Assembly: GCA_011389995.1 (NCBI GenBank)
Contig: JAABTG010000009.1
Coordinates: 13,482-77,481, forward strand
Origin: Thiotrichales bacterium
GTDB lineage: Bacteria > Pseudomonadota > Gammaproteobacteria > JAABTG01
Reading direction: 5' to 3'
Length of the DNA stretch: 64,000 bases
This document shows positions 5,392 to 56,751 of this stretch, in pieces. The notes under the pieces were generated by a model that ran no database searches, was not told the DNA's origin, and saw only the letters and a program-made list of their open reading frames with translations. How positions within the stretch are numbered: position 1 is the stretch's first letter; the number at the start of each line of letters is the position of its first letter. Both the position numbers and the translations under genes were made by a program.

Positions 5392-5419
5392 GGGAATAGG
5401 GAATAGGGAATAGGGAATG
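5392..5419. repeat. Heptanucleotide tandem array (GGGAATA)x4; left arm of the inverted repeat pair flanking the four-helix-bundle gene
   Basis: Direct read: gggaatagggaatagggaatagggaatgg. It lies between the nuoN start codon and the four-helix-bundle gene stop codon. Confidence 0.85.
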
Positions 5420-5422
5420 GCT

Positions 5423-5803
5423 TTAAAGGCGTCTGCGGGCATCCTGGATACTCCGGATGAATCCCGCAAGGAGACGGGACTCATTGGCCACTGTTTGAAA
5501 AATCTCATCATCTCTTTGCAGATATCCCAGTTCGCTCGCAATGATAAGTTGAGTATCCACTTCACTGAGCGAGCCACTTGCCACATCCAGGAACCTCAAC
5601 AATTCCTTATCGCTCCTTCGCGCGACACCCTCCGCAATATTGCTCGGAACAGATACAGACGCCCTGCGAAGCTGCGCGCAAAGGCCATATCGCTCATCTT
5701 TGGGGAACCGTCCAGTTAAATCGTAAACGGCCTTTACAAGAACGATCCCCTGTTTCCATACATCAAGCCTATAGTGGCGTCTCCACTTCACATCGGCATC
5801 CAT
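5423..5803 (-). CDS. Four-helix-bundle protein (TIGR02436, '23S rRNA intervening-sequence protein' family; related to DGR Avd) inserted inside the nuo operon
   Basis: 126 aa: RYGLCAQLRRASVSVPSNIAEGVARRSDKELLRFLDVASGSLSEVDTQLIIASELGYL matches the family signature (QIRRAAxSIxxNIAEG ... GSxxELETQLxIA). A strong SD (GAGGAGGG) sits 6 nt upstream. It is co-oriented with the nuo genes and flanked by inverted heptamer arrays. Confidence 0.85.
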   Translation of the reverse strand: MDADVKWRRHYRLDVWKQGIVLVKAVYDLTGRFPKDERYGLCAQLRRASVSVPSNIAEGVARRSDKELLRFLDVASGSLSEVDTQLIIASELGYLQRDDEIFQTVANESRLLAGFIRSIQDARRRL

Positions 5804-5851
5804 TCCGGTCCCTCCTCGGCCTCACCTGACCCATCCCCGTCCGGCTTCCTG

Positions 5852-5878
5852 CTATTCCCTATTCCCTATTCCCTATTC
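5852..5878. repeat. Heptanucleotide tandem array (TATTCCC)x~4; reverse complement of the (GGGAATA) array
   Basis: Direct read: ctattccctattccctattccctattc, between the nuoM stop (5907) and the four-helix-bundle gene start (5803). It is perfectly complementary to 5392-5419. Confidence 0.85.
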
Positions 5879-5906
5879 ACTCGCCTTTGAATCATTCCCT
5901 TTTCCC

Positions 5907-7424
5907 TCAAAGCTTCGACTGCACCATATGCCCGATCAGATGCTCCACCGTGGGATGCATCACCTCCAGAATGGGCTGGGGCCAGACCCCGAAGAGGATG
6001 ACCACCACGGCCAGGACGCCGAGGATCAGGAACTCCCGGGTGGCGAGGTCGCCGAGTCCGGCCACCTTGTCGTTGGCCACCTTGCCGTAGATGACCCGCT
6101 TGTACATCCACAGGTTGTAGGTGGCCCCCAGCAGCAGGATGCTGGCGGCCAGGAAGGCGTACCAGAAATTGGCCTGGAAGCTGGACAGGATGACCATGAA
6201 CTCACCCACGAAGCCGGAGGTACCCGGCAGGCCCGAGTTGGCCATGATGAACAGCATCATGAAGGCGGCGAATACCGGCATGGGATTGGCCACGCCGCCA
6301 TAGGCACCGATCTCGCGGGTGTGCATGCGGTCGTAGAGCACCCCCACGCACAGGAACAGGGCGCCGGAGATGAAGCCGTGGGAGATCATCTGCATCATCC
6401 CCCCCTCCATACCCAGGGCCGCCCCCTGGATGTCCCCGGTGTTGTCGAGGATGGCGAAGGCCACGAAGAAGCCCAGGGTGACGAAGCCCATGTGGGAGAT
6501 GCTGGAGTAGGCCACCAGCTTCTTGAGGTCCTTCTGGACGATGGCCACGAAGCCGATGTAGACCACGGCGATGAGGGACAGGCCGATCATGAGCCAGTCC
6601 AGCTCGCGGCTGGCATCGGGGGTGATGGGCAGGCTGAAGCGCAGGAAGCCGTAGCCGCCCATCTTGAGCATGATGGCCGCCAGCACCACGGAGCCGCCGG
6701 TGGGGGCCTCCACGTGGGCATCCGGCAGCCAGGTGTGCACCGGCCACATGGGCACCTTCACCGCGAAGGCGATGAGGAAGGCCAGGAAGATGAGAATCTG
6801 CGCCGACAGGCCGATGGAGACCACGTGCATGTCCTGGATGGCGAAGCTGCCGGCCTGACCGTAGAGATAGAGCAGGGCCACCAGCATGAACACCGAGCCC
6901 AGGAAGGTATAGAGAAAAAACTTGATGGTGGCGTAGATGCGGTTGGGCCCGCCCCAGATGCCGATGATGAGAAACATGGGGATGAGCATGGCCTCCCAGA
7001 ACACGTAGAACAGCATGGCGTCCATGGCGGCGAACACGCCGTTCATCAGGCCTTCCATGATGAGGAAGGCCGCCATGTACTGGCCCACCTTGTACTGGAT
7101 GACCTCCCAGGCGGAGATCACCACCAGCACCGTGGTGAAGGTGGTCAGCAGTATCAGGGGCATGGAGAAGCCGTCCACCCCGAGGTGATAGTTGATGCTG
7201 AAGGCCTCGATCCAGGGCATCTTCTCCACGAACTGCATGGCCGGCGTGGTGGTGTCGAAGCCGGTGTAGAGGGGGATGGAGAGCAGGAAGGTGGCCAGGG
7301 ACACCACCAGGGCGATCACCCGTGCACCCTGGGCGTTGCGCTCGCCGGCGGCGAGGATCCACGCGCCACCCAGGATGGGCAGCCACACCAGCAGGCTCAG
7401 AAGGGGCAGTTTCTCGAACAGCAT
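5907..7424 (-). CDS. nuoM: NADH-quinone oxidoreductase subunit M
   Basis: 505 aa; NuoM/ND4 family membrane subunit. Confidence 0.9.
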   Translation of the reverse strand: MLFEKLPLLSLLVWLPILGGAWILAAGERNAQGARVIALVVSLATFLLSIPLYTGFDTTTPAMQFVEKMPWIEAFSINYHLGVDGFSMPLILLTTFTTVLVVISAWEVIQYKVGQYMAAFLIMEGLMNGVFAAMDAMLFYVFWEAMLIPMFLIIGIWGGPNRIYATIKFFLYTFLGSVFMLVALLYLYGQAGSFAIQDMHVVSIGLSAQILIFLAFLIAFAVKVPMWPVHTWLPDAHVEAPTGGSVVLAAIMLKMGGYGFLRFSLPITPDASRELDWLMIGLSLIAVVYIGFVAIVQKDLKKLVAYSSISHMGFVTLGFFVAFAILDNTGDIQGAALGMEGGMMQMISHGFISGALFLCVGVLYDRMHTREIGAYGGVANPMPVFAAFMMLFIMANSGLPGTSGFVGEFMVILSSFQANFWYAFLAASILLLGATYNLWMYKRVIYGKVANDKVAGLGDLATREFLILGVLAVVVILFGVWPQPILEVMHPTVEHLIGHMVQSKL

Positions 7425-7440
7425 GTCTAATTCATCCCCC

Positions 7441-9402
7441 TCACGAACCGCCCACGGCGAACTGCAGCAACAGCAGCAGCCCGATGATCATGGCGAAGGC
7501 ATAGGTATACAGATACCCCGTCTGGATGCGCCGGAAGATGCCGGAGAACCAGGCCACCACCTTCGCCGAGCCGTTCACCACCAGGCCGTCGATGAGGGCC
7601 AGATCCCCCACCCGCCACAACAGCCCCCCGAGACCCCGGGTACCCCCGCCGAAGAACCAGTCGTTGAAGCGGTCGTGTCCGTACTTCTCCACCAGGATGG
7701 TATGGAGGGGCCGCACCCGCGCCACTATCTTCGCCGGCAGATCGGTGCGCTTCATGTACAGGAACCAGGCCGTAAACACCCCGAGGGCCGCCAGCCAGAA
7801 GGGTGGCGCCATGATGCCATGGAGCATGAAGGCCACCAGCCCGTGGTAGCCCTCCCCCAGGCGGGCCAGGGTGTCGTGCTCGGGGGCAACGAAGATGGCC
7901 TCGCCGAAATAGTCGCCGAACAGCATGGGCTCGGCCCACAACCAGCCGATGATCACCGACGGGATGGCCAGCAGGATCAGAGGCACGGTGACCACCCACG
8001 GGGCCTCGTGGAGGTGTTCCCGGGTATGTTCGTCCATGCGTTCCTCGCCGTGGAAGGTCATGAAGAACATGCGGAAGGAATAGAGGGCGGTGATGAATAC
8101 CCCCGAGAGTACTGCCAGGTAGGCGATGTCGGCCCCCCACAGCTCCGAATGGTGCACCGCCTCGATGATGCCGTCCTTGGAAAAGAAGCCGGAGAAACCC
8201 GGAAACCCGATGAGGGCCAGGGAGCCGATGAGGGAGGTGACATAGGTGATGGGCATGTACTTGCGCAATCCGCCCATGCGGCGCATGTCCTGCTCGTGAT
8301 GCATGGCGATGATGACCGCCCCCGCCCCCAGGAACAGCAGGGCCTTGAAGAAGGCGTGGGTGCCGAGATGGAACATGGACGCCGCGTAGGCCGAGGCCCC
8401 CAGGCCCACCGCCATGTAGCCCAGCTGGGACAGGGTGGAGTAGGCCACCACCCGTTTGATGTCGTTCTGCACCAGCCCCAGCAGCCCCATGAAGAAGGCG
8501 GTGATGGCACCAATGATGAGGACGAAGGACAGGGCCGTCTCGGAGAGCTCGAACAGGGGCGACATGCGGCTGACCATGAAGATACCGGCGGTCACCATGG
8601 TGGCGGCGTGGATGAGGGCCGAGATGGGGGTCGGGCCCTCCATGGAATCGGGCAGCCACACGTGCAGCGGCCACTGGGCGGATTTGCCCATGGCACCGAT
8701 GAACAGCAGGATGCAGATGACGGAGAACAGGGACCACTCGGCGCCGGGGATGACCTCCATGGTGGTCCCCACCAGCTCCGGCGCCCTGGCGAAGACCTCG
8801 GCGTAATCCAGGGTGCCGAAGTACATCAGCACCGCGGCGATGCCGAGCAGGAAGCCGAAGTCTCCCGCCCGGTTCACCAGGAAGGCCTTCATGTTGGCGT
8901 AGATGGCCGAGTCCCGCTCGTACCAGAAGCCGATGAGCAGGTAGGACACCAGGCCCACCGCCTCCCAGCCGAAGAACAGCTGGAGGAAGTTGTTGGCCAT
9001 CACCAGCATCAGCATGGCGAAGGTGAACAGGGAGATGTAGCTGAAGAACCGCTGGTAGCCCGGGTCGTCGTGCATGTAACCGATGGTGTAGATGTGGACC
9101 ATCAGGGACACGAAGGTCACCACCACCATCATGGTGGCCGTCAGTTGGTCGACGAGAAAGCCCACCTGGAAGGCGATGCCGTCGCTCACGGCCCAGGTAT
9201 AGACGTTGCCGTTGAAGGCGTCGGCACCCTCCAGCACGTGGTGGTTGTAGACCACGAAGGAGAGCACGGTGGACAGGGCCACGCCGATGATGGTGACCCA
9301 ATGGGCCCCGGCCCTGCCGATGGCCTTGCCCAACAGGCCGGCGATGAGGGCACCCACCAGGGGGGCCAGGGGGATGGCCAGATAGATGTCGAACATGTCC
9401 AT
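7441..9402 (-). CDS. nuoL: NADH-quinone oxidoreductase subunit L
   Basis: 653 aa; NuoL/ND5 family with a long C-terminal extension. Confidence 0.9.
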   Translation of the reverse strand: MDMFDIYLAIPLAPLVGALIAGLLGKAIGRAGAHWVTIIGVALSTVLSFVVYNHHVLEGADAFNGNVYTWAVSDGIAFQVGFLVDQLTATMMVVVTFVSLMVHIYTIGYMHDDPGYQRFFSYISLFTFAMLMLVMANNFLQLFFGWEAVGLVSYLLIGFWYERDSAIYANMKAFLVNRAGDFGFLLGIAAVLMYFGTLDYAEVFARAPELVGTTMEVIPGAEWSLFSVICILLFIGAMGKSAQWPLHVWLPDSMEGPTPISALIHAATMVTAGIFMVSRMSPLFELSETALSFVLIIGAITAFFMGLLGLVQNDIKRVVAYSTLSQLGYMAVGLGASAYAASMFHLGTHAFFKALLFLGAGAVIIAMHHEQDMRRMGGLRKYMPITYVTSLIGSLALIGFPGFSGFFSKDGIIEAVHHSELWGADIAYLAVLSGVFITALYSFRMFFMTFHGEERMDEHTREHLHEAPWVVTVPLILLAIPSVIIGWLWAEPMLFGDYFGEAIFVAPEHDTLARLGEGYHGLVAFMLHGIMAPPFWLAALGVFTAWFLYMKRTDLPAKIVARVRPLHTILVEKYGHDRFNDWFFGGGTRGLGGLLWRVGDLALIDGLVVNGSAKVVAWFSGIFRRIQTGYLYTYAFAMIIGLLLLLQFAVGGS

Positions 9403-9412
9403 GGTCAGCGCC

Positions 9413-9718
9413 CTAGCCTTTCATCGTATCCAGATCGGCGACATTGATGGTCTGACGGTTGCGGAACAGCACCACCAGGATCGCCAGGCCGATGGCCGAC
9501 TCCGCGGCCGCCACCGTGAGAATGAAGAACACGAACACCTGGCCCGCGTTGTCACCGAGATAATGGGAGAAGGCGATGAAGTTCATGTTCACCGACAACA
9601 GCATGAGCTCGATGGACATGAGCAGGATGATCACATTCTTGCGGTTGAGGAAGATGCCGGCCATGGACAGGCAGAACATGATGGCCCCCAGGATAAGTAC
9701 GTAGGACAGGGGGATCAC
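9413..9718 (-). CDS. nuoK: NADH-quinone oxidoreductase subunit K
   Basis: 101 aa, three TM helices; NuoK/ND4L. Confidence 0.9.
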
Positions 9719-10335
9719 GAGCCGTCCTCCCGGCCGTTGCGGGGTTCGGAGGCCATGGAGACGATGCGGATGCGGTCCTCCCGGCGCACCGCCACCTGCA
9801 TCTCGGGCTTCTGGGTTTTCACCGTGTTGCGCCGGCGCATGGTGAGGGAGATGGCCGCCACGATGGCCACCAGCAGGATCACCGCCGCCACCTCGAAGGC
9901 AAAGAGATACTCGGTATAGAGCACCGCCCCCAAGGCCTCGGTGTTGCTGTAGTCGGCGGCCTTGGGCACGGGCTTGGGATAGTCCTCGAGCCCGAAGCGC
10001 TCGCCCCCCACCACCATGATGAGCTGGAAGGCGATGAGCACCGCCACCAGCAGGCCCACGGGCAGGTAGCGGATGAAGCCCTCCTTGAGACGTGCCGTAT
10101 TGACGTCCAGCATCATGACCACGAACAGGAACAGCACCATCACCGCCCCCACGTAGACCAGCACCAGGACGATGGCCAGGAACTCGGCCTCCATGAGCAG
10201 CCAGATGGCCGCACTGGAGAAGAAGGCGAGCACCAGGAACAGGGCGGAATGCACGGCGTTGCGCACGGTGATCACCATGACCCCGGCGAATACCATGATC
10301 GCCGCGAAGACGAAGAAGATGACTAGCTGACTCAT
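9715..10335 (-). CDS. nuoJ: NADH-quinone oxidoreductase subunit J
   Basis: 206 aa; NuoJ/ND6 family. Its stop overlaps the nuoK start. Confidence 0.85.
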
Positions 10336-10420
10336 GTTAACCAGGGCGACGCCGCGGCGTCGCCTTTATTCCCCCCGCCCTGTTGTCGTTTGCGGAACGC
10401 CCTCGCGGCATCCCGCGCAT

Positions 10421-10909
10421 TTAGCGATACCGTGCGTCCTCCGCACGGTCTGCAGCGATCTGGGCCTCCCATTTGTCGCCCACCGCCAGCAGTTTCTCCT
10501 TTGTCATGTAGAGGTCCCCGCGCTTCTCGCCGTGATACTCGTGGATGCGGGTCTCGACGATGGAGTCCACAGGACAGGACTCCTCGCAGAAACCGCAGAA
10601 GATGCACTTGACCAGGTCGATGTCGTAGCGCGTGGTACGCCGGCTGCCATCCTCCCGCACCTCGGAATCGATGGTGATGGCCAGGGCCGGGCACACCGCC
10701 TCGCACAGCTTGCAAGCGATGCACCGCTCCTCGCCGTTGGGGTAACGGCGCAGGGCGTGAAGGCCGCGAAAGCGCGGCGACATGGGGGTCTTCTCTTCCG
10801 GGTACTGCACCGTCACCTTGCGCTTGAACAGGTAGCGTCCGGTGAGGCGCATGCCCACCAGCAGTTCCCACAGCATGAAGCTCTTGAAGAAGTGGCGGAA
10901 TCCGTTCAT
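10421..10909 (-). CDS. nuoI: NADH-quinone oxidoreductase subunit I (2x[4Fe-4S] ferredoxin-type)
   Basis: 162 aa starting [11 protein letters not shown]. Two CxxCxxCxxxCP motifs are present ([24 protein letters not shown]). The track ORF is N-terminally over-extended to 11239. Confidence 0.9.
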
Positions 10910-12060: not shown

Positions 12061-12066
12061 CGCCAA

Positions 12067-14448
12067 TCAGCCCCTGTCCAGGCTCACCTCGCCATAGGCC
12101 GGACCGGCGAGGCCGGCGGCCGTGGAACCCATGTAGATCAGCACCCCGCCCTCGGCGAGCCGCTCATCGAGGCGTGCGGTGACGGTCACGGCGCCGGCGG
12201 AGCCGGCCATCGTCAGATGGGCGGCATCCCCGTCGCCCAGGCCCAGACGCTCGGCGTCCGCCGGATGCATGTAGACCGCCTTCCCCGCCTTGCGTCCGTC
12301 CAGGGTGTCCTGCAACGAACCGGCACGGCGCACCACCGCGTCCGTGCCATAGATGGCGGGCTCCGGGATGCGGCCCAGCTGCCCCGCCCCTTCTTCCCCG
12401 TCACCCGGTTCCCCCAGGGCGTCGATACCGCGCACCGCCTGGTCATCCACCCCCTTGCGCACCTCGTCGTGGACCTGGCCGCAATTGGTGTAGTCGAAGC
12501 CCTCCAGACCCAGCCGGTTGGCCAGCACCCGCAGCACCTTCCAGGCCGGGCGGGCCTCCCCCACCGGGCGGGCGGCGCCTTCGAAGCGTTGCCACAGGCC
12601 GGCGGCGTTGACGTGGGTGCCCGCGGTCTCGGCAAACACGCCGATGGGCAGCAGCACGTCGGCCTGGGCCTCCAGCTCGGGGGTGCGGTAGGCGCTCAGG
12701 CAGACGGTGAACTCCGCCTCCTGCAGCCGCCGCGCCGCGAGACCTCCGTCCCAGCAGTCGGCCGCCGCTTCCACGCCCACGGTGACGAAGCCCTTGAGGC
12801 CCCTTGCCAACATGGCCGCGGCGTCCAGGCCGGCCACGCCGGCCGCCGCACCCCCCGCCTCCCGCAGGGGCAGGGCCCCCGCCAGATGGCCCCCCACGCT
12901 GTTGGCGGCGGGTAGGTAGCCGCGCACGCCGCCGGTGGCCCGGGCGATGTAACCGGCCAGGGCGCGCAGGGTGGTGAAACGGGGATGGGCCAGGGCCATG
13001 GCACCGAGCAGGATCAGTGGCCGCTCCGCCGCGTTCAGCCCTGCGGCCACGGCGCGATGGTCATCGGTCATCTCGGCCGCGGCGATGAGGTCACCGAGGA
13101 CCCCGTCGGGCAGATCCCTGTCCAGGGCCCGGGCCACGCCGGCCAGGGTGGCAGTCCAGCGAGCGGTGTTGATGCCTGGATTGAAGGCGGTGTCGTAGTT
13201 GAAATCGTAGCGTGCGGGGTTCAGGAACATGGCCCGCGCGCCCCCCTGCACCGCCTTGCGCAGGCGGTGATTGAGGATGGGCACCTCCTTGCGCAGGTGG
13301 GAACCCACCACCAGGAAGGCATCCCGGCCCTCGAACTCTTCAAAGCTCAGGTTGAGCCCCGGAAACAGCGGGTCGTTGCCGGCGTCACCGAAGTCCACCT
13401 GGCGCAAACGATGATCGATGTTGCCCGAGCCCAGTCCGCGCAGCAGACGCTGGGTGAGGTAATGCTCCTCCAGGGTGGCGGCGGGAGATACCAGGGCCCC
13501 CAGTTCGGCGGGCCCGTGGGCCTCCACCACGGCCCGCAGACCGTCGGCCGCCGCCTCCAGGGCCACGTCCCAGTCCGCCTCCTGCCATTTGCCCTTGACC
13601 TTCACGACGGGCCGCTCGAGGCGGTCCTCGGCATAGATCCCCTGGTAGCTGTAGCGGTCGCGGTCCGACAACCAGGTCTCGTTGACCGCCTCGTTGTCCC
13701 GCGGCACCACCCGCATCACGCGACCTTCCCGGGTGTGGAGAAACAGGTTGGAGCCCACGCAGTCGTGGGGCGCGACACTCGCGCGCTGCATCAGCTCCCA
13801 GGCCCGGGCCTTGAAGCGGAAGGGCTTGTTGGTGAGGGCGCCCACCGGGCAGAGGTCGATGACGTTGCCCGACAACTCCGAGTCCATGTTGCGCTCGATG
13901 AAGGTGCCGATGCGCATGTCCTCGCCCCGACCGGTGGCCCCGAGTTCCCGGATCCCCCCGATCTCCTCGCCGAAGCGCACGCAGCGGGTGCAATGGATGC
14001 AGCGGGTCATGTCGGTGGCGATGAGGGGCCCGAGATCCTTGTCGGGCACCACCCGCTTGCGCTCGGAGAAGCGCGACACGTCGCCGCCGTACCCCATGGC
14101 CACGTCCTGCAGCTCGCACTCGCCACCCTGGTCGCAGATGGGGCAGTCCAGGGGATGATTGATGAGCAGGAATTCCATCACCGACTTCTGGGACCGCAGC
14201 GCCTCCTCGGAGCGGGTATAAACGGTCATGCCGTCGTTGACGGGCGTGGCACACGCGGGCAGGGGCTTGGGTGCCTTCTCCACCTCCACCAGGCACATGC
14301 GGCAGTTGGCCGCCACCGACAGCTTCTTGTGGTAACAGAAGCGCGGAATGTGGATGCCCGCCTCGTCCGCCACCTGGATGAGCATGGTGCCGCGGGGGGC
14401 CTTGAGCTCCCGGCCGTCGATATGGATGGTGACGAGGTCTTCGGACAT
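12067..14448 (-). CDS. nuoG: NADH-quinone oxidoreductase subunit G (75-kDa Fe-S subunit)
   Basis: 793 aa. N-terminal 2Fe-2S and 4Fe-4S Cys motifs are present (CYHKKLSVAANCRMCLVEV, CPICDQGGECELQ). MopB-like C-terminal domain. Confidence 0.9.
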   Translation of the reverse strand: MSEDLVTIHIDGRELKAPRGTMLIQVADEAGIHIPRFCYHKKLSVAANCRMCLVEVEKAPKPLPACATPVNDGMTVYTRSEEALRSQKSVMEFLLINHPLDCPICDQGGECELQDVAMGYGGDVSRFSERKRVVPDKDLGPLIATDMTRCIHCTRCVRFGEEIGGIRELGATGRGEDMRIGTFIERNMDSELSGNVIDLCPVGALTNKPFRFKARAWELMQRASVAPHDCVGSNLFLHTREGRVMRVVPRDNEAVNETWLSDRDRYSYQGIYAEDRLERPVVKVKGKWQEADWDVALEAAADGLRAVVEAHGPAELGALVSPAATLEEHYLTQRLLRGLGSGNIDHRLRQVDFGDAGNDPLFPGLNLSFEEFEGRDAFLVVGSHLRKEVPILNHRLRKAVQGGARAMFLNPARYDFNYDTAFNPGINTARWTATLAGVARALDRDLPDGVLGDLIAAAEMTDDHRAVAAGLNAAERPLILLGAMALAHPRFTTLRALAGYIARATGGVRGYLPAANSVGGHLAGALPLREAGGAAAGVAGLDAAAMLARGLKGFVTVGVEAAADCWDGGLAARRLQEAEFTVCLSAYRTPELEAQADVLLPIGVFAETAGTHVNAAGLWQRFEGAARPVGEARPAWKVLRVLANRLGLEGFDYTNCGQVHDEVRKGVDDQAVRGIDALGEPGDGEEGAGQLGRIPEPAIYGTDAVVRRAGSLQDTLDGRKAGKAVYMHPADAERLGLGDGDAAHLTMAGSAGAVTVTARLDERLAEGGVLIYMGSTAAGLAGPAYGEVSLDRG

Positions 14449-14460
14449 TTTCAGGAGCGA

Positions 14461-14490
14461 GGGAATAGGGAATAGGGAATAGGGAATAGC
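14461..14490. repeat. Heptanucleotide tandem array (GGGAATA)x4 in the nuoG-nuoF spacer
   Basis: Direct read: gggaatagggaatagggaatagggaatagc. Same unit as the arrays flanking the four-helix-bundle gene. Confidence 0.85.
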
Positions 14491-14533
14491 AAGCTACCGC
14501 CCCGGGTCGGCCGCGGCGCGGTGCCCCTAACGA

Positions 14534-14563
14534 CCAATGACGAATGACCAGTGACCAATGACA
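14534..14563. repeat. Degenerate heptanucleotide tandem array (CCAATGA/CGAATGA/CCAGTGA)x4 in the nuoG-nuoF spacer
   Basis: Direct read: gaccaatgacgaatgaccagtgaccaatgac, ending at the nuoF stop codon. Confidence 0.8.
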
Positions 14564-15844
14564 TCAGGCGGCGTCCTTCACCAGGCTGCGGCCGTGTTCG
14601 ATGTAGTGTTCGAACTCGGGGCGGAAGTGCTCAAGGAAGCTGCGCACGGGCATGGCGGCGGCGTCCCCCAGGGCACAGATGGTCCGCCCCATGATGTTGT
14701 AGGCCACGTTGTCCAGCAGTTCGAGGTCCTCGGGCCGGCCCTTGCCTTCCACGATGCGCGTCAGCATGCGGTACAGCCAGCCGGTACCCTCGCGGCAGGG
14801 CGTGCACTGGCCGCAGGACTCGGAGAAATAGAAACGGGAGATGCGTCGCAGCACCTGGACCATGTCGGTGGTCTCGTCCATCACCATCACGGCACCGGAG
14901 CCCAGCATGGAGCCCGCCTTGGCGATGGAGTCGTAATCCATGTCGACCTCCATCATCACCTCGCCCGGCACCACGGGCACCGAGGAGCCGCCGGGAATGA
15001 CCGCCTTGATGGTCCGCCCCTTCCAGATCCCGCCCGCCAGCTCCAGCAGCTCCCGGAAGGGCATCCCCAGGGGGACCTCGTAGTTGCCGGGACGCTCCAC
15101 GTGGCCGGAGACGGAGAACAGCTTCTCGCCCCCGCCGTTGTCGCAGCCGAGGCCCTTGAACCACTCACCGCCGTTGCGCATGATGATGGGCACCGAGGCC
15201 AGGGATTCGGTGTTGTTGATGGTGGTGGGGCACCCGTAGAGCCCGTAGTTGGCCGGGAAAGGCGGCTTGAAGCGCGGCTGCCCCTTCTTGCCTTCCAGGG
15301 ATTCCAGCAGGGCCGTCTCCTCGCCGCAGATATAGGCCCCGGCCCCCAGGGTGTCGTAGAGGTCGAAATCCACGCCGCTGCCGAGGATGTCCCGCCCCAG
15401 GTAACCTGCCGCGTAGGCCTCGTCCAGGGCCTGCTTGAAGCGCAGATAAACCTCGTCCAGGAACTCACCCCGCATGTAGTTGTAACCCACCGTGGCACCG
15501 ATGGCGTAGCCGGCGATGGCCATGCCTTCCACCAGGGCATGGGGATTGAAGCGCAGGATGTCGCGGTCCTTGCACGTACCCGGCTCCGACTCGTCGGAAT
15601 TGCACACGATGTAGCTCTGGGCCACCTTGCCCTTGGGCATGAAGCTCCACTTGAGACCGGTGGGGAAACCCGCGCCGCCGCGTCCACGCAGGCCGGATTT
15701 CTTGACCTCCTCGATGACGTCCAGGGGAGTGATCTTGTCCCGCAGAATACGTTCCCAGGCCTCGTAGCCACCGATCCTGCGGTAGGTCTCCAGACTCCAG
15801 GGCTCATCGAAGTCGAGGGTGGTGAAACAGACTTGGTTGGCCAT
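14564..15844 (-). CDS. nuoF: NADH-quinone oxidoreductase subunit F (NADH-binding, FMN, 4Fe-4S)
   Basis: Start [16 protein letters not shown]. Contains [16 protein letters not shown] and [10 protein letters not shown] motifs. The track ORF is over-extended to 15877. Confidence 0.9.
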
Positions 15845-15851
15845 ACTCGCG

Positions 15852-16349
15852 CTACTCCAGTCCGTCCAGGATCTCATCCACCCGGGCGGGAGTGAGGTTC
15901 TCGTAGTAAACGTGATCCACCTGCATCATGGGGGCACCGCAACAGGCCGCCAGACACTCCTCCTCGAGCTTGAGGTAGATGCGTCCGTCGGGGGTGCTCT
16001 GACCCACCGCGATGCCGAGCCTGTTCTCGATGTGGGCGAGGATATCGTCGCCACCCCGCAGCATGCAGGACACGTTGGTGCATACGGATACGCTGTGGCG
16101 GCCCACGGGCTCCAACTCGAACATGGAGTAGAAGCTCGCCACCTCGTAGACGGCGATGGCGGGCATCTCCAGATAGGCCGCCACGGCATCCATCAGGGGC
16201 GTGGTGAGGTAACCCCCGTTCTCGTGCTGCACCTCCCGCAGGGCGGCCAGCACTGCAGACTGCTTCTGGTCGTCCGGATAGCGGGCGAGCCAGCGGTCGA
16301 TCTCCTCCCGGGCATGGGCCGAAAGGACGGTGTCAGGGGTGGCCGTCAT
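15852..16349 (-). CDS. nuoE: NADH-quinone oxidoreductase subunit E (2Fe-2S)
   Basis: ~165 aa from [10 protein letters not shown]. Contains [10 protein letters not shown] ... CLAACCGAP. The track ORF is over-extended to 16709; the real start overlaps the nuoD stop. Confidence 0.85.
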
Positions 16350-19543: not shown

Positions 19544-19627
19544 GGTGCCGATGGCCGGAGTCGAACCGGCACGGCTTGCGCCACTGCCCCCTCAAGACAG
19601 CGTGTCTACCAATTCCACCACATCGGC
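19544..19627 (-). tRNA. tRNA-Leu (anticodon GAG)
   Basis: The reverse complement reads GCCGATGTGGTGGAATTGGTAGACACGCTGTCTTGAGGGGGCAGTGGCGCAAGCCGTGCCGGTTCGACTCCGGCCATCGGCACCA. It has an acceptor stem, a D-loop (GGTAGA), anticodon loop TTGAGGG, a long variable arm and a T-loop (GTTCGACTC), plus an encoded CCA. The position after secG is the classic context. Confidence 0.85.
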
Positions 19628-32969: not shown

Positions 32970-33827
<858 letters not shown>

Positions 33828-33861
33828 TGCTGCACTCAACTCCTTCACTCTGCCGGCCAAG

Positions 33862-33903
33862 AACAAAGGACAAAGGACAAAGGACAAAGGACAAAGGACA
33901 AGG
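33862..33903. repeat. Heptanucleotide tandem array (GGACAAA)x~5, dapB-dnaJ spacer; near-inverted relative to the (TTTGTCA) array
   Basis: Direct read: aacaaaggacaaaggacaaaggacaaaggacaaggacaagg, ending at the dnaJ stop. Confidence 0.8.
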
Positions 33904-33904: not shown

Positions 33905-35029
33905 TCATATCTTCATGTCCTCGAAAAACTTCTTCACCCCGTCCAGCCACGACGACGCCCGGGGCGAATGGCGGTCGCCGCCATGGGTCATGGTCTCCTC
34001 GAACTCCTTCAGCAGACCCTTCTGCTTCTTGTTGAGGTTCACCGGTGTCTCGACGATGGCCCGGCAGATGAGGTCGCCTTCATATCCCCCCCGCACGGAA
34101 CGCACGCCCCGGCCGCGGATGCGGAAGAGTTTTCCGCTCTGGGTCTCGGCCGGGATCTTCAGGACCACCCGGCCGTCGAGGGTGGGCACCTCGAGCTCAC
34201 CACCGAGGGCCGCCATGGTGAAGCTGATGGGCACCTCACAGTAGAGGTTGTTCTTCTCGCGGCTGAAAATGGGATGGGGACGGATGTTGATCTGGACATA
34301 GAGATCACCGGGCGGTCCGCCGTTCTCCCCCGGCTCCCCTTCCCCCGCCAGACGTATGCGGTCCCCCGTATCCACCCCCGCCGGCACCTTCACCGACAGG
34401 GTCTTCTCGCTCTTGACCCGCCCGGCGCCCCGGCAGGTGGTGCAGGGGTCGTCGATGATGGTGCCCCGCCCGCGGCAGGTGGGGCAGGTCTGCTGGACCG
34501 AGAAGAAGCCCTGTTGCAGGCGCACCTGGCCGGCGCCGTGGCAGGTGGTGCAGGTCACCGGCGACGAACCCTTCCGGGCCCCCGAGCCACCGCAGGTGTC
34601 GCATGTCTCGGCGGTGGGGATACGGATGGAGGCCGTGGTGCCGGCCACTGCCTCCTCCAGGGACAACTCCAGGTCGTAGCGCAGGTCGGCACCGCGATAG
34701 ACACGGCTGCCGCCACGACCGCCACCGCCGAAGATGTCGCCGAACATCTCGTCGAAGATGTCCCTGAATCCGGCACCGCCGCCCCCGCTCATGCCCGCGG
34801 CGCCTTCCACGCCCGCATGACCGAACTGGTCGTAGGCGGCACGCTTGCGGGCATCCGCCAGCACCTCGTAGGCCTCCTTCGCCTCCTTGAACAGGGTCTC
34901 GGACTCCATGTCTCCGGGGTTGCGATCCGGATGGTGCTTCATGGCCAGCCGCCGGTAGGCCTTCTTGATATCGGCCTCGCTGGCATTACGGGTCACGCCC
35001 AGGACTTCGTAGTAATCGCGTTTTGACAT
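33905..35029 (-). CDS. dnaJ: Molecular chaperone DnaJ
   Basis: 374 aa; J domain (DYYEVLGV ... HPDRNP), G/F-rich linker, and four CxxCxGxG zinc-finger repeats. Confidence 0.95.
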
Positions 35030-45463: not shown

Positions 45464-45479
45464 GGTTCATCATGTCAGC

Positions 45480-51910: not shown

Positions 51911-53915
51911 TGCCACCCTGCCCGAAGGCCCAACCACCATGCGTAATATGAAGCCCGCCCTCCCCGCCCTGTTCCTGCTCCTGCTGCTGTACGCCGGCAC
52001 GGCGTTGCTGGCCCCCGCGGCGCGGGCGGAACCCGTCACCCTCAACCTGGAGGAGGCGGAGATCGGCACCCTCATCGCCACGGTATCCGAGGTCACGGGA
52101 CGCAACTTCGTCGTCGACCCGCGGGTGAAGGGCAAGGTCAGCGTGGTCTCCTCCATGGCCATGGAGAAGGAGGAGCTCTACCAGGTATTCCTGTCCATCC
52201 TCGAGGTCCACGGCTTCGCCGCCGTACCCTCGGGCAACGTCGTCAAGATCGTGCCGGACGCCAACGCCAAGCACATCGACACCCCGCTGGCCAGCGATAG
52301 GGCACCCGGGGTCGGCGACGAGATCGTGACCCGGGTGGTGCAGGTGGAGAACGTCTCCGCCTCCCAGCTGGTACCCATCCTGCGGCCCCTGGTGCCCCAG
52401 CAGGGCCACCTCGCCGCCTATCCGGCCACCAACGTCCTGGTGGTATCGGACCGCGCCGGCAACATCGAGCGGCTGGTGAAGATCATCACCCGCATCGATC
52501 AGAAGACCGACGCCGAGATCGAGGTCATCAACCTGCAGCATGCGACGGCCGCCGAGGTGGTGCGGGTGATCACCGCCCTGCAGCGGCCCGCCCAGGGCCA
52601 GGCCGCGGTGGAAGGCGGCCAGGGCCTGCCCAGCCTGGTGGCCGACGAGCGCACCAACAGCATCCTCATGAGCGGCGACCAGCTGGCCCGCCTGCGCGTC
52701 CGCGCCCTCATCACCCACCTGGACACCCCCCTGGAGTCCACCGGCAACACCCACGTGGTCTATCTGCGCTATGCCCGGGCGGCCGAGCTCGCCGACGTCC
52801 TCACGGACATCAGCAGCGACATCCAGCAGGATGAAGGGGCCGGCAACGCCGCCGGCGGCGCCAACAACCAGCGCGGCAACGACATAGGTATCCGTGCCGA
52901 CGAGGCCTCCAACGCCCTGGTGATCACGGCTCCGCCCGAGGCCTACGCCTCCCTGCGCCAGGTCATCTCCCAGCTGGATATCCGCCGCGCCCAGGTACTG
53001 GTGGAGGCCATCATCGCCGAGGTGCGAAGCGAGAATGCGGCCGAAATGGGGGTGCAGCTTCGCGACCTGGTGGGCGGCAGCGACGGCAGTTTCGTCATCA
53101 GCAATCCCCAGGGCCCCAACAGCCCCTTCGTCGGTGCCGATGGCGCCTCCACCCTCTCCGGCCTGACCCTGGGCCTGGTACGCAACGGCGACATCCGCGG
53201 CCTGTTGCGGGCCCTCGCCACCTCATCGGACACCAATCTCATCGCCACTCCCACCCTCCTCACCCTGGACAACGAGGAGGCCGCCATCGTGGTGGGCCAG
53301 AACGTGCCCTTCCTCACCGGCAGCTTCACCAACGACTCCACCACACCGGACAATCCCTTCCAGACCATCGAGCGCCGGGACGTGGGGCTGGAACTCACCG
53401 TCACCCCCCAGATCAACGAAGGCGACGCCATGTCCCTGGTGATCTCCCAGGAGGTCTCCAGCATCGACGACAGCGCCCAGGCGGTGGACCTCATCACCAC
53501 CACCCGCTCCATCAACACCACCGTACTGGTGGACGACGGCGAGATAGTGGTACTGGGAGGACTCATCCGCGACGACTTTCAGACCACGGAACAGAAGGTG
53601 CCTGTGCTCGGGGACCTGCCGGTGCTGGGCAACCTGTTTCGCAGCACCAGCAGCGACAGCACCAAGAACAACCTGATGGTGTTCATCAAGCCCACCATCG
53701 TCCGTAACCGCGCGGATATCGCCCACATCACCAGCAGCAAGTACAACTTCCTGCGGGCCAAGCAGCTGGAGCAGCCGAAATCCCGGGTGCTGTTCGAGCC
53801 GGCCATGCAGGTGCCATTGCTGGCCCCCTTCGAAGAGGCACCGAAGCCCCCTGGACGACAGGAGAACCCCCCTGCCCCCGAGGAAGAGCCCAGGGCCCTC
53901 TTCGAGTACGACTGA
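51903..53915 (+). CDS. gspD: Type II secretion secretin GspD
   Basis: 670 aa; signal peptide, N0-N3 domains, and a secretin C-domain (VVLGGLIRDDFQTTEQKVPVLGDLPVLGNLFRS). Confidence 0.9.
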   Translation: MTDATLPEGPTTMRNMKPALPALFLLLLLYAGTALLAPAARAEPVTLNLEEAEIGTLIATVSEVTGRNFVVDPRVKGKVSVVSSMAMEKEELYQVFLSILEVHGFAAVPSGNVVKIVPDANAKHIDTPLASDRAPGVGDEIVTRVVQVENVSASQLVPILRPLVPQQGHLAAYPATNVLVVSDRAGNIERLVKIITRIDQKTDAEIEVINLQHATAAEVVRVITALQRPAQGQAAVEGGQGLPSLVADERTNSILMSGDQLARLRVRALITHLDTPLESTGNTHVVYLRYARAAELADVLTDISSDIQQDEGAGNAAGGANNQRGNDIGIRADEASNALVITAPPEAYASLRQVISQLDIRRAQVLVEAIIAEVRSENAAEMGVQLRDLVGGSDGSFVISNPQGPNSPFVGADGASTLSGLTLGLVRNGDIRGLLRALATSSDTNLIATPTLLTLDNEEAAIVVGQNVPFLTGSFTNDSTTPDNPFQTIERRDVGLELTVTPQINEGDAMSLVISQEVSSIDDSAQAVDLITTTRSINTTVLVDDGEIVVLGGLIRDDFQTTEQKVPVLGDLPVLGNLFRSTSSDSTKNNLMVFIKPTIVRNRADIAHITSSKYNFLRAKQLEQPKSRVLFEPAMQVPLLAPFEEAPKPPGRQENPPAPEEEPRALFEYD

Positions 53916-54004
53916 GGCCGCGCCGCTGCGCCACCCTCGGGGCGGCCCGTCAAGCCGCCGCCCGACGGGCCGCTATGTAGGGTACCCGCCCCACCGGTAC
54001 CCTC

Positions 54005-56353
54005 ATGGCCGCCAAGCCCTCCACCCGCCCCCGCCCCCATCCCACCCGTATCGGTCGCTACGTGGTGGGAGGGATCCTGGGCCGCGGTGCCCAGGGGGTG
54101 GTCTACCTGGCCACGGATCCGGAACTCGACCGGGAGGTGGCCATCAAGACCCTGACCCGCCGCACCCGGGATGCCGCCACCCTCCTCAAGGAGGCCCAGC
54201 TGGTGGGACGCATGAAACACCCCGGCATCGTGCCGGTATACGACGCCGGGCGCCTGGGGGACGTGCCCTACGTGGTCTACGAGCGGGTCAGGGGGCGCAC
54301 CCTGGACCAGGTGCTCGCGGAGGAGCCCCGCCTGCCCCTGCCCCGCATCGTGGCCTGGATGACGCAGATCCTGGACGCCCTGGAATACGCCCATGGCCAG
54401 CAGGTGGTGCATCGCGACATCAAACCCGCCAACGTGGTGATTCAGGACGACGACTCCCCGCGGGTGCTGGATTTCGGCATCGCGCTCCCCAGCGGTACCG
54501 AGACCCGGGTCATGGAGGGCCTGTGGGGCACCTTCCAGTACCTGGCACCGGAGATGGTGGACAAGGGGCGGGCCACGGCGGCCACGGACATCTTCTCCCT
54601 GGGGCTCATCCTGTTCGAAATGCTCACCGGCCGGCGCGCCATCGCCGAAGACGACCCCATGGCGGCCATGTACCACATCGCCCATCGGCCGGTACCCCCG
54701 CCGTCATCCATCCGTCCCGAGGTGGCCCCCGGCCTCGACGGCATCGTGTCCCGGGCCCTGCAGAAGCGGCCCGACGCCCGTTACTCCGATGCCGGCGAGA
54801 TGCGGGACGCCCTGGCGGTATTCGCCGAACCCGAGGTGCACGAGCATGAGCCACGCCGCCAGTCGACCCTGAATTTCCTGTTGCGGCGCATGCGCCAGAA
54901 GCCGGATTTTCCCGCCATCGGGCGCCACATCTCGGAGATCAGCCAGAAGACCGCCGCCATCGATCGCGCATCGGTGGACGAGCTCACCAACCTGATCCTG
55001 GAAGACTATGCCCTCACCACCAAGCTGCTGCGGCTGGTGAACTCCTCCTACTACGGCCAGTACGGTGGTTCCATCAGCACCGTATCCCGGGCGGTGGTGA
55101 TCCTCGGCTTCAACCAGGTGCGCATGGCGGCCCTGAGCCTGCTGCTGTTCGAGCACATCGCCGACAAGCCCAACGTGCCGGTGCTCAAGGAGGTGGGCGG
55201 ACGGGCCTTCTTCAGCGGCCTCATCAGCCGCCGCCTGGCCGCCGACATGGCCCACGCCGACGCCGAACAGGGCTTCGTGAGCGCCATGTTCCACACCCTG
55301 GGACGCTATCTGTCGGCCTATTATTTTCCCGACGAGGACGAGGAGATCGGCCGTCTCATGGACAACCAGGGCCTGTCCGAGGAGGCCGCCGCCGTGGCAG
55401 TGCTCGGCCTCACCTTCGAGGCCCTGGGCATCGGCGTGGGCAGGGAGTGGCATCTGCCCTCCGAACTCCTGGAAGGCATGCGCACCCTGGGTGTCGACGA
55501 GATGCCGCGGCGTCCCGCCAACCCCCGGCAGGCCATGCGCCTGCTGTCCTGTTTCGCCAACGAGGTGGCCATGGCCATGGGCGGCGACGACCCCGGCGCA
55601 TGCCACGAACGCCTGTCACAGCTGGAGCAGCGTTACGGTCAGGCGGTGCGGCTGGCGCCGGACCGCATGCAACAGGTGATCGCCGAGGGCGTGGAGGATA
55701 TCCAGCGCTTCTCCCGCGCCGCCGCCATCGACCTCGGCGACAATGCCATCCTGCGCAACGCCCGCCGCCTGGGGCGGCAGGAGGAGGACTCGGAGGACGA
55801 GGACCCTCGGGAAGGTGCCGCCGTGGAGGACAGCGGCCAAAACGACGCACCATCGACCCAGACCACGCTGCTGAGCGGCATTCAGGACATCAGCCAGGCC
55901 CTGGTGGACAACTACGGCATCAACGACATTCTCATCATGATCCTCGAGACCCTGTTCCGGGGTCTCGGCTTCACGCGGGTGGTGCTGTTCATCAACAACT
56001 CCCGGCAGGCCGAGATGAACGCCCGCTTCGGCCTCGGTCGCGACATCGACAAGCTGCTGCCCCGCCTCAAGTTCTCCACCACCAGGGCCCAGGACATATT
56101 CGGCCGGGCGGTGCGCGAACACGAGGACATCATCCAGGTCCAGGGGCCCCGGGGGGGAGACATACCGGCCTGGCACCGCGACCTGCTCTCTCCCAGCACC
56201 TTCGCCCTCTACCCGGTAATCATCGGCAACAAGTGCCTCGGCCTCATCTACGCCGATCGCGACGAACGCAACCGCCCCATCACCGAAGCCGAGCGCAATT
56301 ACCTCAACACCCTGCGCAACCAGGCGGCCCTGGCGATTCGGCAAAGATCATAG
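54005..56353 (+). CDS. Hanks-type Ser/Thr protein kinase fused to HDOD and C-terminal GAF domains
   Basis: N-terminus has GxGxxG (ILGRGAQGVVY), catalytic HRDIKPANV, DFGIA and APE. The middle has the HDOD signature (LRLVNSSYYGQYGGSISTVSRAVVILGFNQVR). The C-terminal ~180 aa are GAF-like. Confidence 0.8.
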   Translation: MAAKPSTRPRPHPTRIGRYVVGGILGRGAQGVVYLATDPELDREVAIKTLTRRTRDAATLLKEAQLVGRMKHPGIVPVYDAGRLGDVPYVVYERVRGRTLDQVLAEEPRLPLPRIVAWMTQILDALEYAHGQQVVHRDIKPANVVIQDDDSPRVLDFGIALPSGTETRVMEGLWGTFQYLAPEMVDKGRATAATDIFSLGLILFEMLTGRRAIAEDDPMAAMYHIAHRPVPPPSSIRPEVAPGLDGIVSRALQKRPDARYSDAGEMRDALAVFAEPEVHEHEPRRQSTLNFLLRRMRQKPDFPAIGRHISEISQKTAAIDRASVDELTNLILEDYALTTKLLRLVNSSYYGQYGGSISTVSRAVVILGFNQVRMAALSLLLFEHIADKPNVPVLKEVGGRAFFSGLISRRLAADMAHADAEQGFVSAMFHTLGRYLSAYYFPDEDEEIGRLMDNQGLSEEAAAVAVLGLTFEALGIGVGREWHLPSELLEGMRTLGVDEMPRRPANPRQAMRLLSCFANEVAMAMGGDDPGACHERLSQLEQRYGQAVRLAPDRMQQVIAEGVEDIQRFSRAAAIDLGDNAILRNARRLGRQEEDSEDEDPREGAAVEDSGQNDAPSTQTTLLSGIQDISQALVDNYGINDILIMILETLFRGLGFTRVVLFINNSRQAEMNARFGLGRDIDKLLPRLKFSTTRAQDIFGRAVREHEDIIQVQGPRGGDIPAWHRDLLSPSTFALYPVIIGNKCLGLIYADRDERNRPITEAERNYLNTLRNQAALAIRQRS

Positions 56354-56385
56354 TTCGAGCCGAAGATGGGCCAGTATTGTTCAAT

Positions 56386-56449
56386 GCCGAGATGGGCCAT
56401 CCATGGCCCACTTCGGCGCGGCAGGGGAAAACGCGGTTTTCCCCTGCCT
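56386..56449 (+). repeat. 64-bp direct repeat, copy A, with a perfect 12-bp-stem hairpin (GCAGGGGAAAAC-GCG-GTTTTCCCCTGC)
   Basis: gccgagatgggccatccatggcccacttcggcgcggcaggggaaaacgcggttttcccctgcct. Repeated 160 bp downstream with 1 mismatch. Confidence 0.85.
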
Positions 56450-56545
56450 ACATGGGTCGCGCCGGGCGCGCCCCATGGCGAGGCTCCTGCCTCGCGGGGA
56501 CTTCCGGCTTCGCAGCTCTATGCCGGGATGGGGCGGATCGTTCAA

Positions 56546-56630
56546 GCCGGGATGGGCCATCCATGGCCCACTTCGGCGCGGCAGGGGAAAACGCGGTTTT
56601 CCCCTGCCTCGCGGGGGCTTCCGGCCAAAG
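56546..56630 (+). repeat. 64-bp direct repeat, copy B, plus the shared tail ctcgcgggg(a/g)cttccgg
   Basis: Identical to copy A apart from g/a at position 5. Copy A carries an extra 38-bp GC-palindromic insert before the shared tail. Confidence 0.85.
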
Positions 56631-56704
56631 CTCATGCGGCTAGGGCGCGTAGCCGAGCGGGGGTCGGGAGTCGGGGGTGGACCAGCACTAAGGGCATCAC
56701 AATT

Positions 56705-56751
56705 AAAAATTCAAAATTCAAAATTCAAAATTGAAACCGCATAGCGGTTTC
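56705..56751. repeat. Heptanucleotide tandem array (AAAATTC)x~4 followed by an 8-bp-stem hairpin (gaaaccgc-ata-gcggtttc)
   Basis: Direct read: aaaaattcaaaattcaaaattcaaaattgaaaccgcatagcggtttc. AT-rich island ~260 bp upstream of fdhD. Confidence 0.8.

Follow-up and report, generated by a model that had tools for sequence, protein, structure and literature searches.

What are the short tandem arrays of seven-nucleotide units that recur in the intergenic spacers of a 64,000-nucleotide stretch of DNA from a Thiotrichales bacterium (contig JAABTG010000009.1, positions 13,482 to 77,481; hereafter the window), and does anything unite them? The host is a gammaproteobacterium near Thioalkalivibrio, with an identity of 80–82% in NuoF. 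An initial annotation of the window had grouped seven such arrays as a family and had offered slipped-strand variable loci, binding sites, and the ends or remnants of small mobile cassettes as candidate explanations. One pair of these arrays brackets a gene, lodged between nuoM and nuoN, for a small protein of the family TIGR02436/PF05635 (23S_rRNA_IVP; here IVP), which was first found in intervening sequences (IVSs) of 23S rRNA genes. We consider it rather likely that all the arrays belong to a single family, whose complete form is an IVS-type selfish cassette riding on host operon transcripts and whose remaining members are gene-less kin of this cassette.

All seven arrays named in the initial annotation are present at the positions that it gave. 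Tandem Repeats Finder (TRF) together with a direct scan recovered six perfect period-7 arrays and one imperfect one, of 3.9–6.1 units; with a weak second imperfect array that was seen by eye, they are spread over four spacers: nuoM/IVP/nuoN, nuoF/nuoG, dnaJ/dapB and the region downstream of a kinase gene (Table 1). Every one of them is intergenic, and at the three sites that lie inside minus-strand operons the arrays stand within 0–13 nt of a stop or start codon. Three or more perfect units in tandem occur six times at period 7 and never at periods 5, 6 or 8–12, and 100 first-order Markov simulations of the window yielded none. Similarly, GGGAATAGGGAATA at no more than two mismatches has 11 matches in the window, against 0.13 expected. 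As independent assemblies of relatives (L001, L086, L175, L176 and L163–L165; loci from other genomes are cited by number) have arrays at the same junctions, the arrays are not assembly artefacts, a possibility that the initial annotation had raised against its own proposal. The window arrays thus display the features of the heptanucleotide-array class known from other bacteria, namely tandem 7-nt units in excess of chance, a non-coding location near stop or start codons, and about four units whose number varies between strains at a kept position. An Rfam search of the whole window recovered a single tRNA gene (19546–19627, minus strand), no rRNA and no match in the spacers. DNA curvature was rejected as an explanation, the 7-bp period being out of helical phase, and a reading as integron attC sites or CRISPR-like repeats was set aside on inspection: the units follow one another without spacers, the cassettes are not gathered at a single site, and there is no neighbouring integrase.

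The insert between nuoM and nuoN is the most complete of these elements and spans 487 nt. On the transcribed strand the IVP gene is followed after 4 nt by (UAUUCCC)x3.9 and, a further 11 nt on, by the AUG of nuoN. The two terminal arrays are exact reverse complements of each other and are predicted to fold into a perfect 27-bp stem enclosing the whole insert (z = -5.0). This closing of a stem by the paired arrays was absent from the account of the initial annotation. The base composition of the IVP gene (GC 51%, and 51% at third codon positions, GC3) is foreign when compared with that of nuoN and nuoM (63–64%), of the window (66%) and with the host GC3 of about 90%. A promoter and terminator scan of the cassette showed no promoter-like or terminator-like site; as it is also inserted in the sense direction between co-directional genes, it should be transcribed as part of the host operon. 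The start codons of nuoN and nuoG have no recognisable Shine-Dalgarno sequence (5381–5391 and 14449–14459), and pyrimidine-rich arrays end 11 nt upstream of them; the IVP gene, unlike these two, has a strong GAGGAGGGA run. Between the nuoM stop codon and the perfect array there are additional degenerate heptamers, one of which, GGGAAAA, is the unit of the allele found in L176.

The protein itself is a four-helix bundle that matches TIGR02436 (3.9e-32) and PF05635 (6.2e-33), both above cut-off, and its closest solved structure is XCC0516 (PDB 2GSC). The family shares an invariant polar motif (R47, S51, N55, E58 and further residues), and a dN/dS of 0.12 between the window and L001 implies that the protein is maintained by purifying selection. 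There is a distant similarity to the Avd proteins of diversity-generating retroelements (NF033474, 1.6e-4; PF22296, 0.007; phrog_3206, 1.5e-5), all below the family cut-offs, with the Avd model reaching 21.9 bits against a cut-off of 80. A scan against a defence-system library (PADLOC) gave no match, a phage library returned only the weak Avd PHROG, and no HUH/Y1 transposase signature was seen among the profile matches, which comprise PF05635 and the weak Avd hits. In the literature the IVP protein is still termed functionally uncharacterised.

To trace the history of the insert, relatives were reached through homologues, and nuoM-nuoN junctions were collected in a metagenome scan with the NuoM C-terminus, which returned 80 junctions. 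Among these the cassette is present only in L086, whose NuoM is 98% identical to that of the window. The remaining loci, with NuoM identities of at most 84%, have spacers of 8–156 nt and no arrays in the 77 in which nuoN was found. Likewise, 359 kb of related nuo operons contain just four period-7 arrays, two of which are those of the L086 cassette, as against about 0.125 per kb in the window. Four alleles can be distinguished at the site, those of the window, L001, L176 and L086 (the last being equal to that of L175). The window and L001 are 92–93% identical in the flanks and 89% in IVP. Between the window and L086/L175, however, the flanks are 94–95% identical and the IVP genes only 66%, indicating that the cassette was replaced inside conserved flanks. 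The replacing allele has its own arms, GUGAAUR and YAUUCAC, which are mutually complementary; in L175 they are predicted to form a stem of about 32 bp from these different units (z = -4.4). In both L086 and L175 an outer (GGGAAUA) array is kept, unpaired, outside the arrays of the new cassette. Although L086 and L175 are 99–100% identical in flanks and gene, their unit numbers are 4+2+2 and 3+1+5+2, respectively, which is the copy-number polymorphism between strains that the initial annotation had proposed to look for. The L176 contig begins inside an array, (GGGAAAA)x8 or more at its very end (1–55), with (TTTCCCA)x3.5 downstream. Heptamer arrays thus appear to break short-read assemblies, and copy numbers in draft genomes are therefore lower bounds. 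The phylogeny of IVP disagrees with that of the flanks; together with the low GC and the absence of the cassette at NuoM identities of 84% or less, this marks a sporadically distributed element that was acquired horizontally. The suggestion that arrays are the ends of small mobile cassettes is hence well supported at this site, where they are the inverted ends of a TIGR02436 cassette whose allele has been swapped in the closest strains.

The association of arrays with IVP genes is a general one. One genome per species was searched by pattern, which supplied a sample of 80 IVP loci (666 kb) from proteobacteria, Bacteroidota, Acidobacteriota, Chloroflexota, Actinomycetota, Planctomycetota and others. 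In this sample there are 45 perfect arrays of period 7, of which 28 are no more than 300 nt away from an IVP gene, and 0–8 of any other period. The density of period-7 arrays by TRF is 3.4 per kb within 200 nt of an IVP gene and 0.13 per kb elsewhere; the co-occurrence with TIGR02436 genes that the initial annotation had proposed to test takes the form of a 26-fold enrichment. Upstream arrays are found at 54 of the 80 loci, downstream arrays at 60 and both at 45, with a minority of loci using octamers. The heptamer units vary from locus to locus, and the upstream and downstream units of a locus are complementary at six or seven of the seven positions in 34 of 40 cases, as compared to 12% when partners are swapped between loci. 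The upstream array is typically purine-rich (68%) and the downstream one pyrimidine-rich. Four is the modal unit number (60 of 106 arrays), and it is equally so for units without GGG or CCC (34 of 70). By crude ORF calls the genes on either side both run in the same direction as IVP at 37 of 63 loci and both run against it at only 3, which fits a cassette that rides on host transcription. The median total spacer is 489 nt, so that the cassette essentially equals the spacer. Divergent IVP paralogues that were missed by the first profile are bracketed by arrays in the same manner.

In 18 of 59 cases a gene-less array near an IVP locus carries the exact unit that flanks the local IVP gene, whereas the control between loci gave 0.7%. 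Units are also shared according to protein relatedness: 78–100% of the pairs with at least 70% IVP identity share a unit, 24% of those at 60–70% and 11% of those at 50–60%. This co-variation was considered as evidence of specific recognition of the unit by the protein and dropped, since common descent of the whole cassette explains it equally well. In Xanthomonas the orthologue of XCC0516 lies between an accB-like gene and accC, and the arrays on either side of it are of the GGGAATC type that Rehm et al. investigated. In X. arboricola (L043, 4966–5010) the array itself encodes the first residues of the crystallised XCC0516 (ENRESA...), and the true start of this protein may be a downstream ATG (MNAWR...). 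A separate replicate on contigs classed as viral (L177–L209, from IMG/VR) gave IVP cassettes with complementary heptamer arrays on 28 of 33, which suggests a route of horizontal spread or, alternatively, the presence of host regions or prophages in that collection. In Vreelandella sedimenti (L004) a perfect (ACTCACA) array of 94 copies, 658 nt long (5361–6018), directly follows the IVP gene, with a second gene of this kind 4.3 kb further along (9678–10034). In Acetothermia UBA3571 (L081, 1505–9194) eight more gene-less arrays with the units CGTCACG and ACGCGTT, the same that flank the one IVP gene, occur within 10 kb of it, a very high local density.

Table 1. Features of the four array sites in the window. 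Units with U are written on the transcribed minus strand; perfect runs in the last column are read on the forward strand.
Feature	Position	Strand	Description
nuoM	5907–7424	-	
Degenerate heptamers	5879–5906	-	GGGAAAA GGGAATG ATTCAAA GGCGAGT, from the nuoM stop codon to the perfect array
Upstream terminal array, (GGGAAUA)x3.9	5852–5878	-	5' arm of the closing stem; perfect run TATTCCC x3.9, reverse complement of the GGGAATA run
Cassette leader, 48 nt	5804–5851	-	Shine-Dalgarno-like GAGGAGGGA 6 nt upstream of the IVP AUG
IVP gene, 126 aa	5423–5803	-	TIGR02436, PF05635 23S_rRNA_IVP
Downstream terminal array, (UAUUCCC)x3.9	5392–5418	-	3' arm of the closing stem; perfect run GGGAATA x3.9
nuoN	3947–5380	-	
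nuoF	14564–15877	-	
nuoF-nuoG array, (GUCAUUG-like)x4.4	14532–14562	-	Starts 2 nt past the nuoF stop codon; imperfect, GACCAAT x4.4, 83% matches
nuoF-nuoG core, 42 nt	14490–14531	-	G+C-rich, small predicted hairpin
nuoF-nuoG array, (CUAUUCC)x4.3	14460–14489	-	Ends 11 nt before the nuoG start codon; perfect run GGGAATA x4.3
nuoG	12067–14448	-	
dnaJ	33905–35029	-	
dnaJ-dapB array, (UUUGUCC)x6.1	33859–33901	-	Adjoins the dnaJ stop codon; 5' arm of the imperfect hairpin; TRF call x6.1, perfect run GGACAAA x5.6 at 33863–33901
dnaJ-dapB core	33819–33858	-	Orientation relative to the flanking genes opposite to L163
dnaJ-dapB array, (GACAAAU)x3.9	33792–33818	-	Reaches the dapB start region; 3' arm of the hairpin; TRF call x3.9, perfect run TTTGTCA x3.3 at 33796–33818
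dapB	32970–33782	-	Longest open reading frame, to 33803, enters the array
Array after the kinase gene, (AAAATTC)x5.7	56697–56736		TRF call x5.7; perfect run AAAATTC x3.9 at 56706–56732
Weak candidate partner array, GGGGGTC GGGAGTC GGGGGTG	56659–56679		GGGRGTC x3, possible eighth array; seen by eye, no TRF call

The remaining three sites of the window consist of arrays with no IVP gene between them. At nuoF-nuoG the unit of the downstream array is identical to that of the downstream array of the cassette (GGGAATA family). The core is partly conserved in L001 (GTTAGGGGCAC...GGTAGC), where the pair of arrays is kept as well, the first with the unit of the window and the second with (TTCACCA)x4.7 in place of CTATTCC. 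As the same junction measures 0, 8, 14 or 64 nt and is free of arrays in relatives with 83–88% NuoF identity, the array-core-array segment of about 115 nt is an insertion too.

The arrays between dnaJ and dapB are predicted to form a long hairpin in which six of the seven positions of each unit are paired, with one mismatch per unit (z = -4.7). In relatives with 94% DapB identity the spacer comprises (GTCCTTT)x2, about 110 extra nt, the core and (GACCAAT/GACAAAG)x5, and in a relative with 81% identity it is 286 nt long with degenerate heptamers at both ends. The core (about 45 nt) is inverted between the window and L163: the flipped alignment scores 71 over 68 nt, whereas the alignment in the same orientation scores 41 over a 23-nt array alone. 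Such an inversion would be the expected product of recombination between inverted arrays. The longest dapB open reading frame (ORF) begins at an ATG inside the array (33803), and the conserved N-terminus begins at 33782, matching the 270-aa gene calls of relatives.

The neighborhood of the AAAATTC array shows additional small repeats. A perfect hairpin, AAACCGC-ATA-GCGGTTT (56737–56756), abuts the array, and together with the array, which is U-rich on the minus strand, it resembles an intrinsic terminator; no minus-strand gene ends nearby. Just upstream, in the 590-nt gap past the kinase gene, there is a 64-nt REP-like element in two 98%-identical copies (56386–56449 and 56546–56609), each with the hairpin GGCAGGGGAAAAC-GCG-GTTTTCCCCTGCC; a third partial copy concerns the 3' part of this element (56486–56508 and 56603–56625).

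These observations can be accommodated by a simple scheme. The complete cassette, of about 490 nt, opens with about four heptamers in tandem, followed by a short leader that includes a ribosome-binding site, by a gene for a four-helix-bundle protein of 120–130 aa and by the reverse-complement array. In the operon transcript the two arrays would pair into a stem of approximately 27–32 bp; with the whole insert looped out, the stop codon upstream of it and the start codon downstream of it would come to lie close to each other. On the model of the 23S rRNA IVSs, this stem is probably processed by RNase III, or it might at least serve as an insulating hairpin. Either cutting or insulation could render the insertion of such elements into essential operons, as with the 0.5 kb between nuoM and nuoN, tolerable to the host. 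A length requirement for double-stranded RNA (4 x 7 = 28 bp) might likewise underlie the preference for four units, irrespective of whether these contain a G tract. At the DNA level the arrays are unstable and recombinogenic: units are gained and lost and the unit sequence changes, quickly and on both arms together, while the arms remain complementary. The arrays also permit both the replacement of the cassette between them and the inversion of the intervening segment. The inserts at nuoF-nuoG and dnaJ-dapB and the single array near 56.7 kb would then represent non-autonomous or decayed members of the family.

Several results weigh against this scheme, chiefly with respect to the gene-less members and to the role of the stem. 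The arrays at two of the four window sites do not pair: those of nuoF-nuoG show no mutual pairing in the predicted fold, and the AAAATTC array has no complementary partner. The dnaJ-dapB pair has a purine/pyrimidine polarity opposite to that of most IVP cassettes, which counts against its being a cassette remnant. A tblastn search with more than 120 IVP sequences for remnants of the gene in the gene-less spacers, covering those of the window, L001, L163 and L166, returned nothing above noise; the best E was 0.013, in a very small database. Near the other IVP loci 44 of 60 gene-less arrays are single, and the stem therefore cannot be the whole story. Mismatches in 38 array-array stems comprise 10 G.U, 32 A.C and 63 others; in the absence of an excess of G.U over A.C nothing points specifically to selection on the sense RNA, and the complementarity could instead be kept up at the DNA level. 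The sense bias of the neighbouring genes was derived from crude ORF calls. None of the 80 sampled loci lies inside a 23S rRNA gene (blastn of the E. coli 23S rRNA against all loci), and what connects the cassettes with true IVSs is therefore protein homology, together with the description of the Coxiella element discussed below. The proposal of the initial annotation that the gene-less pairs are empty or remnant versions of the nuoM-nuoN cassette accordingly stands in part. In its favor, the nuoF-nuoG pair is also a lineage-specific insertion, and the segment enclosed by the dnaJ-dapB arrays varies among relatives, at 40, about 150 and about 230 nt; the missing trace of an IVP reading frame, the non-complementary arrays of nuoF-nuoG and the polarity of dnaJ-dapB speak against it.

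A different order of events is unlikely in our view, though it deserves the most attention among the alternatives. The arrays might have come first, as autonomous simple repeats generated by polymerase slippage, which is thought to favor 7-nt units, and IVP genes might have inserted into, or persisted inside, pre-existing array hairpins, as they do in the hairpin tips of 23S rRNA. Both nuo junctions, on the contrary, are free of arrays in all relatives that lack the insert, which indicates that arrays and insert arrived together. The sharing of units among closely related proteins further shows that units are inherited with the protein, and related nuo operons that lack the cassette have arrays at a roughly 20-fold lower frequency. 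Arrays are nonetheless abundant in some lineages, and heptanucleotide repeats are the commonest long simple repeats in most genomes, according to the summary of Mrazek 2007 given in PMC4679880. Xanthomonas has about 185 GGGAATC arrays, located between co-oriented ORFs, with four units preferred and 70–75 convergent pairs among them, and far fewer IVP genes (Rehm 2015; PMC4692102). The prevalence of single gene-less arrays, the persistence of the dnaJ-dapB arrays across relatives while the content between them changes, and the outer (GGGAATA) array retained beyond the new cassette in L086 and L175 are also readily understood if arrays can exist on their own.

A bolder version of the cassette scheme makes IVP the specific partner of the arrays. 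The protein, as a pentameric ring, might engage single-stranded RNA or DNA with approximately one heptamer per subunit and thereby promote the spread, homogenisation or exchange of array-bounded cassettes. We regard this as doubtful. If true, it would define a widespread and previously unrecognised selfish system, comparable to RAYT/REP with an unrelated protein, and would account for the excess of heptanucleotide repeats in bacterial genomes as well as for the origin of the ORF-bearing rRNA IVSs.

Less probable again is that an oligomeric protein, be it pentameric IVP or a general post-transcriptional factor such as S1, CsrA or a cold-shock protein, binds the arrays as periodic sites on RNA or single-stranded DNA and so tunes translation of the flanking cistrons. 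The window has at least four or five unrelated units and a single IVP gene, proteins with the same invariant motif belong to cassettes with different units, and the complementarity of the arms is not predicted by single-strand binding. What makes the notion attractive is that arrays end 11–13 nt before the start codons of nuoN and nuoG, which have no Shine-Dalgarno sequence, much as the TAACTGA arrays of Beggiatoaceae stand beside start codons without ribosome-binding sites (MacGregor 2015; PMC4679880). The usual four to five units would also suit a five-subunit ring, since the title of Lin 2006 presents XCC0516 as five four-helix bundles, and the invariant polar motif and the purifying selection on IVP are compatible with such a function.

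G-quadruplex or i-motif regulatory repeats, with four units on account of four G-tracts, were considered for the window arrays because GGGAATA x4 (three window arrays) differs by one base from the Xanthomonas GGGAATC x4, which forms G-quadruplexes in vitro, though its investigators found no function, regulatory or otherwise (Rehm 2015; PMC4692102). Only these three arrays of the window have four or more G3 tracts at 7-nt spacing, five of the eight have no G3 or C3 tract at all (GTCATTG, TTTGTCA/GGACAAA, AAAATTC), and four units predominate just as clearly where GGG and CCC are lacking as they do overall; as a general explanation this one already fails and is very improbable. Hardly credible, finally, are phase-variation contingency loci or unrelated products of neutral slippage: the slipped-strand variability suggested by the initial annotation is real in that unit numbers differ between strains with near-identical flanks, but classical phase variation does not fit arrays that lie between stop and start codons in housekeeping operons, outside reading frames and promoter spacers, and whose period is not a multiple of 3, and neutral repeats would not be expected to show pairing, complementarity and a tie to one gene family.

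The cassette scheme, which we continue to prefer, ties together two puzzles that have stood since about 1990, namely the intergenic heptanucleotide arrays (STRR, GGGAATC, TAACTGA) and the rRNA IVSs with their conserved ORF. This layout is repeated in proteobacteria, Bacteroidota, Acidobacteriota, Chloroflexota, Actinomycetota and phage-like contigs, and its cassettes enter essential operons and are exchanged between close strains. On the practical side, arrays break assemblies, as in L176, and mislead the annotation of start codons, as with the dapB ORF and the first residues of XCC0516. IVP genes have been noticed inside cas operons; to take them for hitch-hikers is a simpler explanation than to take them for cas genes, and it fits the hitch-hiking on operons seen here.

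How does this element compare with systems already known? Cyanobacterial STRR were reportedly described by Mazel in 1990, and the unit at nuoF-nuoG, read as TTGGTCA, is presumably STRR2. The class of heptanucleotide arrays to which STRR, GGGAATC/GGGGAYT of Xanthomonas and Nostoc (PMC4692102) and TAACTGA of Beggiatoaceae (PMC4679880) belong resembles the window arrays in its preference for about four copies of a 7-nt unit, in its intergenic location, mostly between co-oriented ORFs near stop and start codons, in its frequent convergent pairs, and in the variation of length and sequence between related strains at a kept position. The difference lies in interpretation, as the earlier studies proposed G-quadruplexes or sites for translational regulators, whereas the present analysis identifies arrays as the inverted termini of cassettes that carry IVP. 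The words S23, 'intervening' and 'four helix' do not occur in the texts of PMC4692102 and PMC4679880, and in the searchable literature, which excludes subscription journals and curators' notes, the Coxiella paper alone connects heptamer arrays with PF05635. A general link between heptamer arrays and IVP genes thus appears undescribed. The arrays themselves are of a known kind; their identity as the ends and gene-less kin of IVS-protein cassettes is new, as is the direct evidence for insertion, allele replacement, inversion and unit slippage.

The closest functional parallel is provided by the IVSs of 23S rRNA genes. Ralph and McClelland are said to have reported, in 1993, a Leptospira 23S rRNA IVS with an S23p/IVP ORF. 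IVSs with such an ORF share with the cassette a PF05635 protein without known function, an ORF in the sense direction of the host transcript, inverted-repeat termini that form a stem, and a sporadic distribution suggestive of horizontal transfer. In Coxiella burnetii the likeness extends to the 5' terminus, where tandem heptamers (GACAGAT x2-3, the number varying between strains) lie upstream of the S23p ORF, and RNase III cuts at the first repeat in the terminal inverted-repeat stem (PMC4990558). Unlike these IVSs, which are inserted in helix 9, 25 or 45 of 23S rRNA, the cassette sits between the protein-coding genes nuoM and nuoN; excision by RNase III has been demonstrated for the rRNA IVSs only, and the Coxiella ORF was judged to be decaying by its authors, in contrast to the IVP of the window with its low dN/dS.

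In terms of layout the parallel is rather with REP/REPIN sequences and their RAYT genes, in which copies of a short repeat are scattered between genes and within operons, occur in hairpin-forming pairs and have a genome-specific repertoire, and a single-copy gene is flanked by inverted copies of this repeat, just as the GGGAATA array of the cassette recurs at nuoF-nuoG. RAYT, however, is an HUH/Y1 (IS200/IS605-like) transposase and IVP a small four-helix bundle; REP repeats are palindromes of 20–40 nt and those of IVP cassettes tandem heptamers, and the mobilisation of IVP cassettes is putative. The Avd proteins of diversity-generating retroelements share with IVP a distant homology and the four-helix-bundle fold family, but a 487-nt cassette is too small for a reverse transcriptase or for template and variable repeats. 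The cassette therefore works like an IVS and is laid out like a REP/RAYT system, while being a member of neither.

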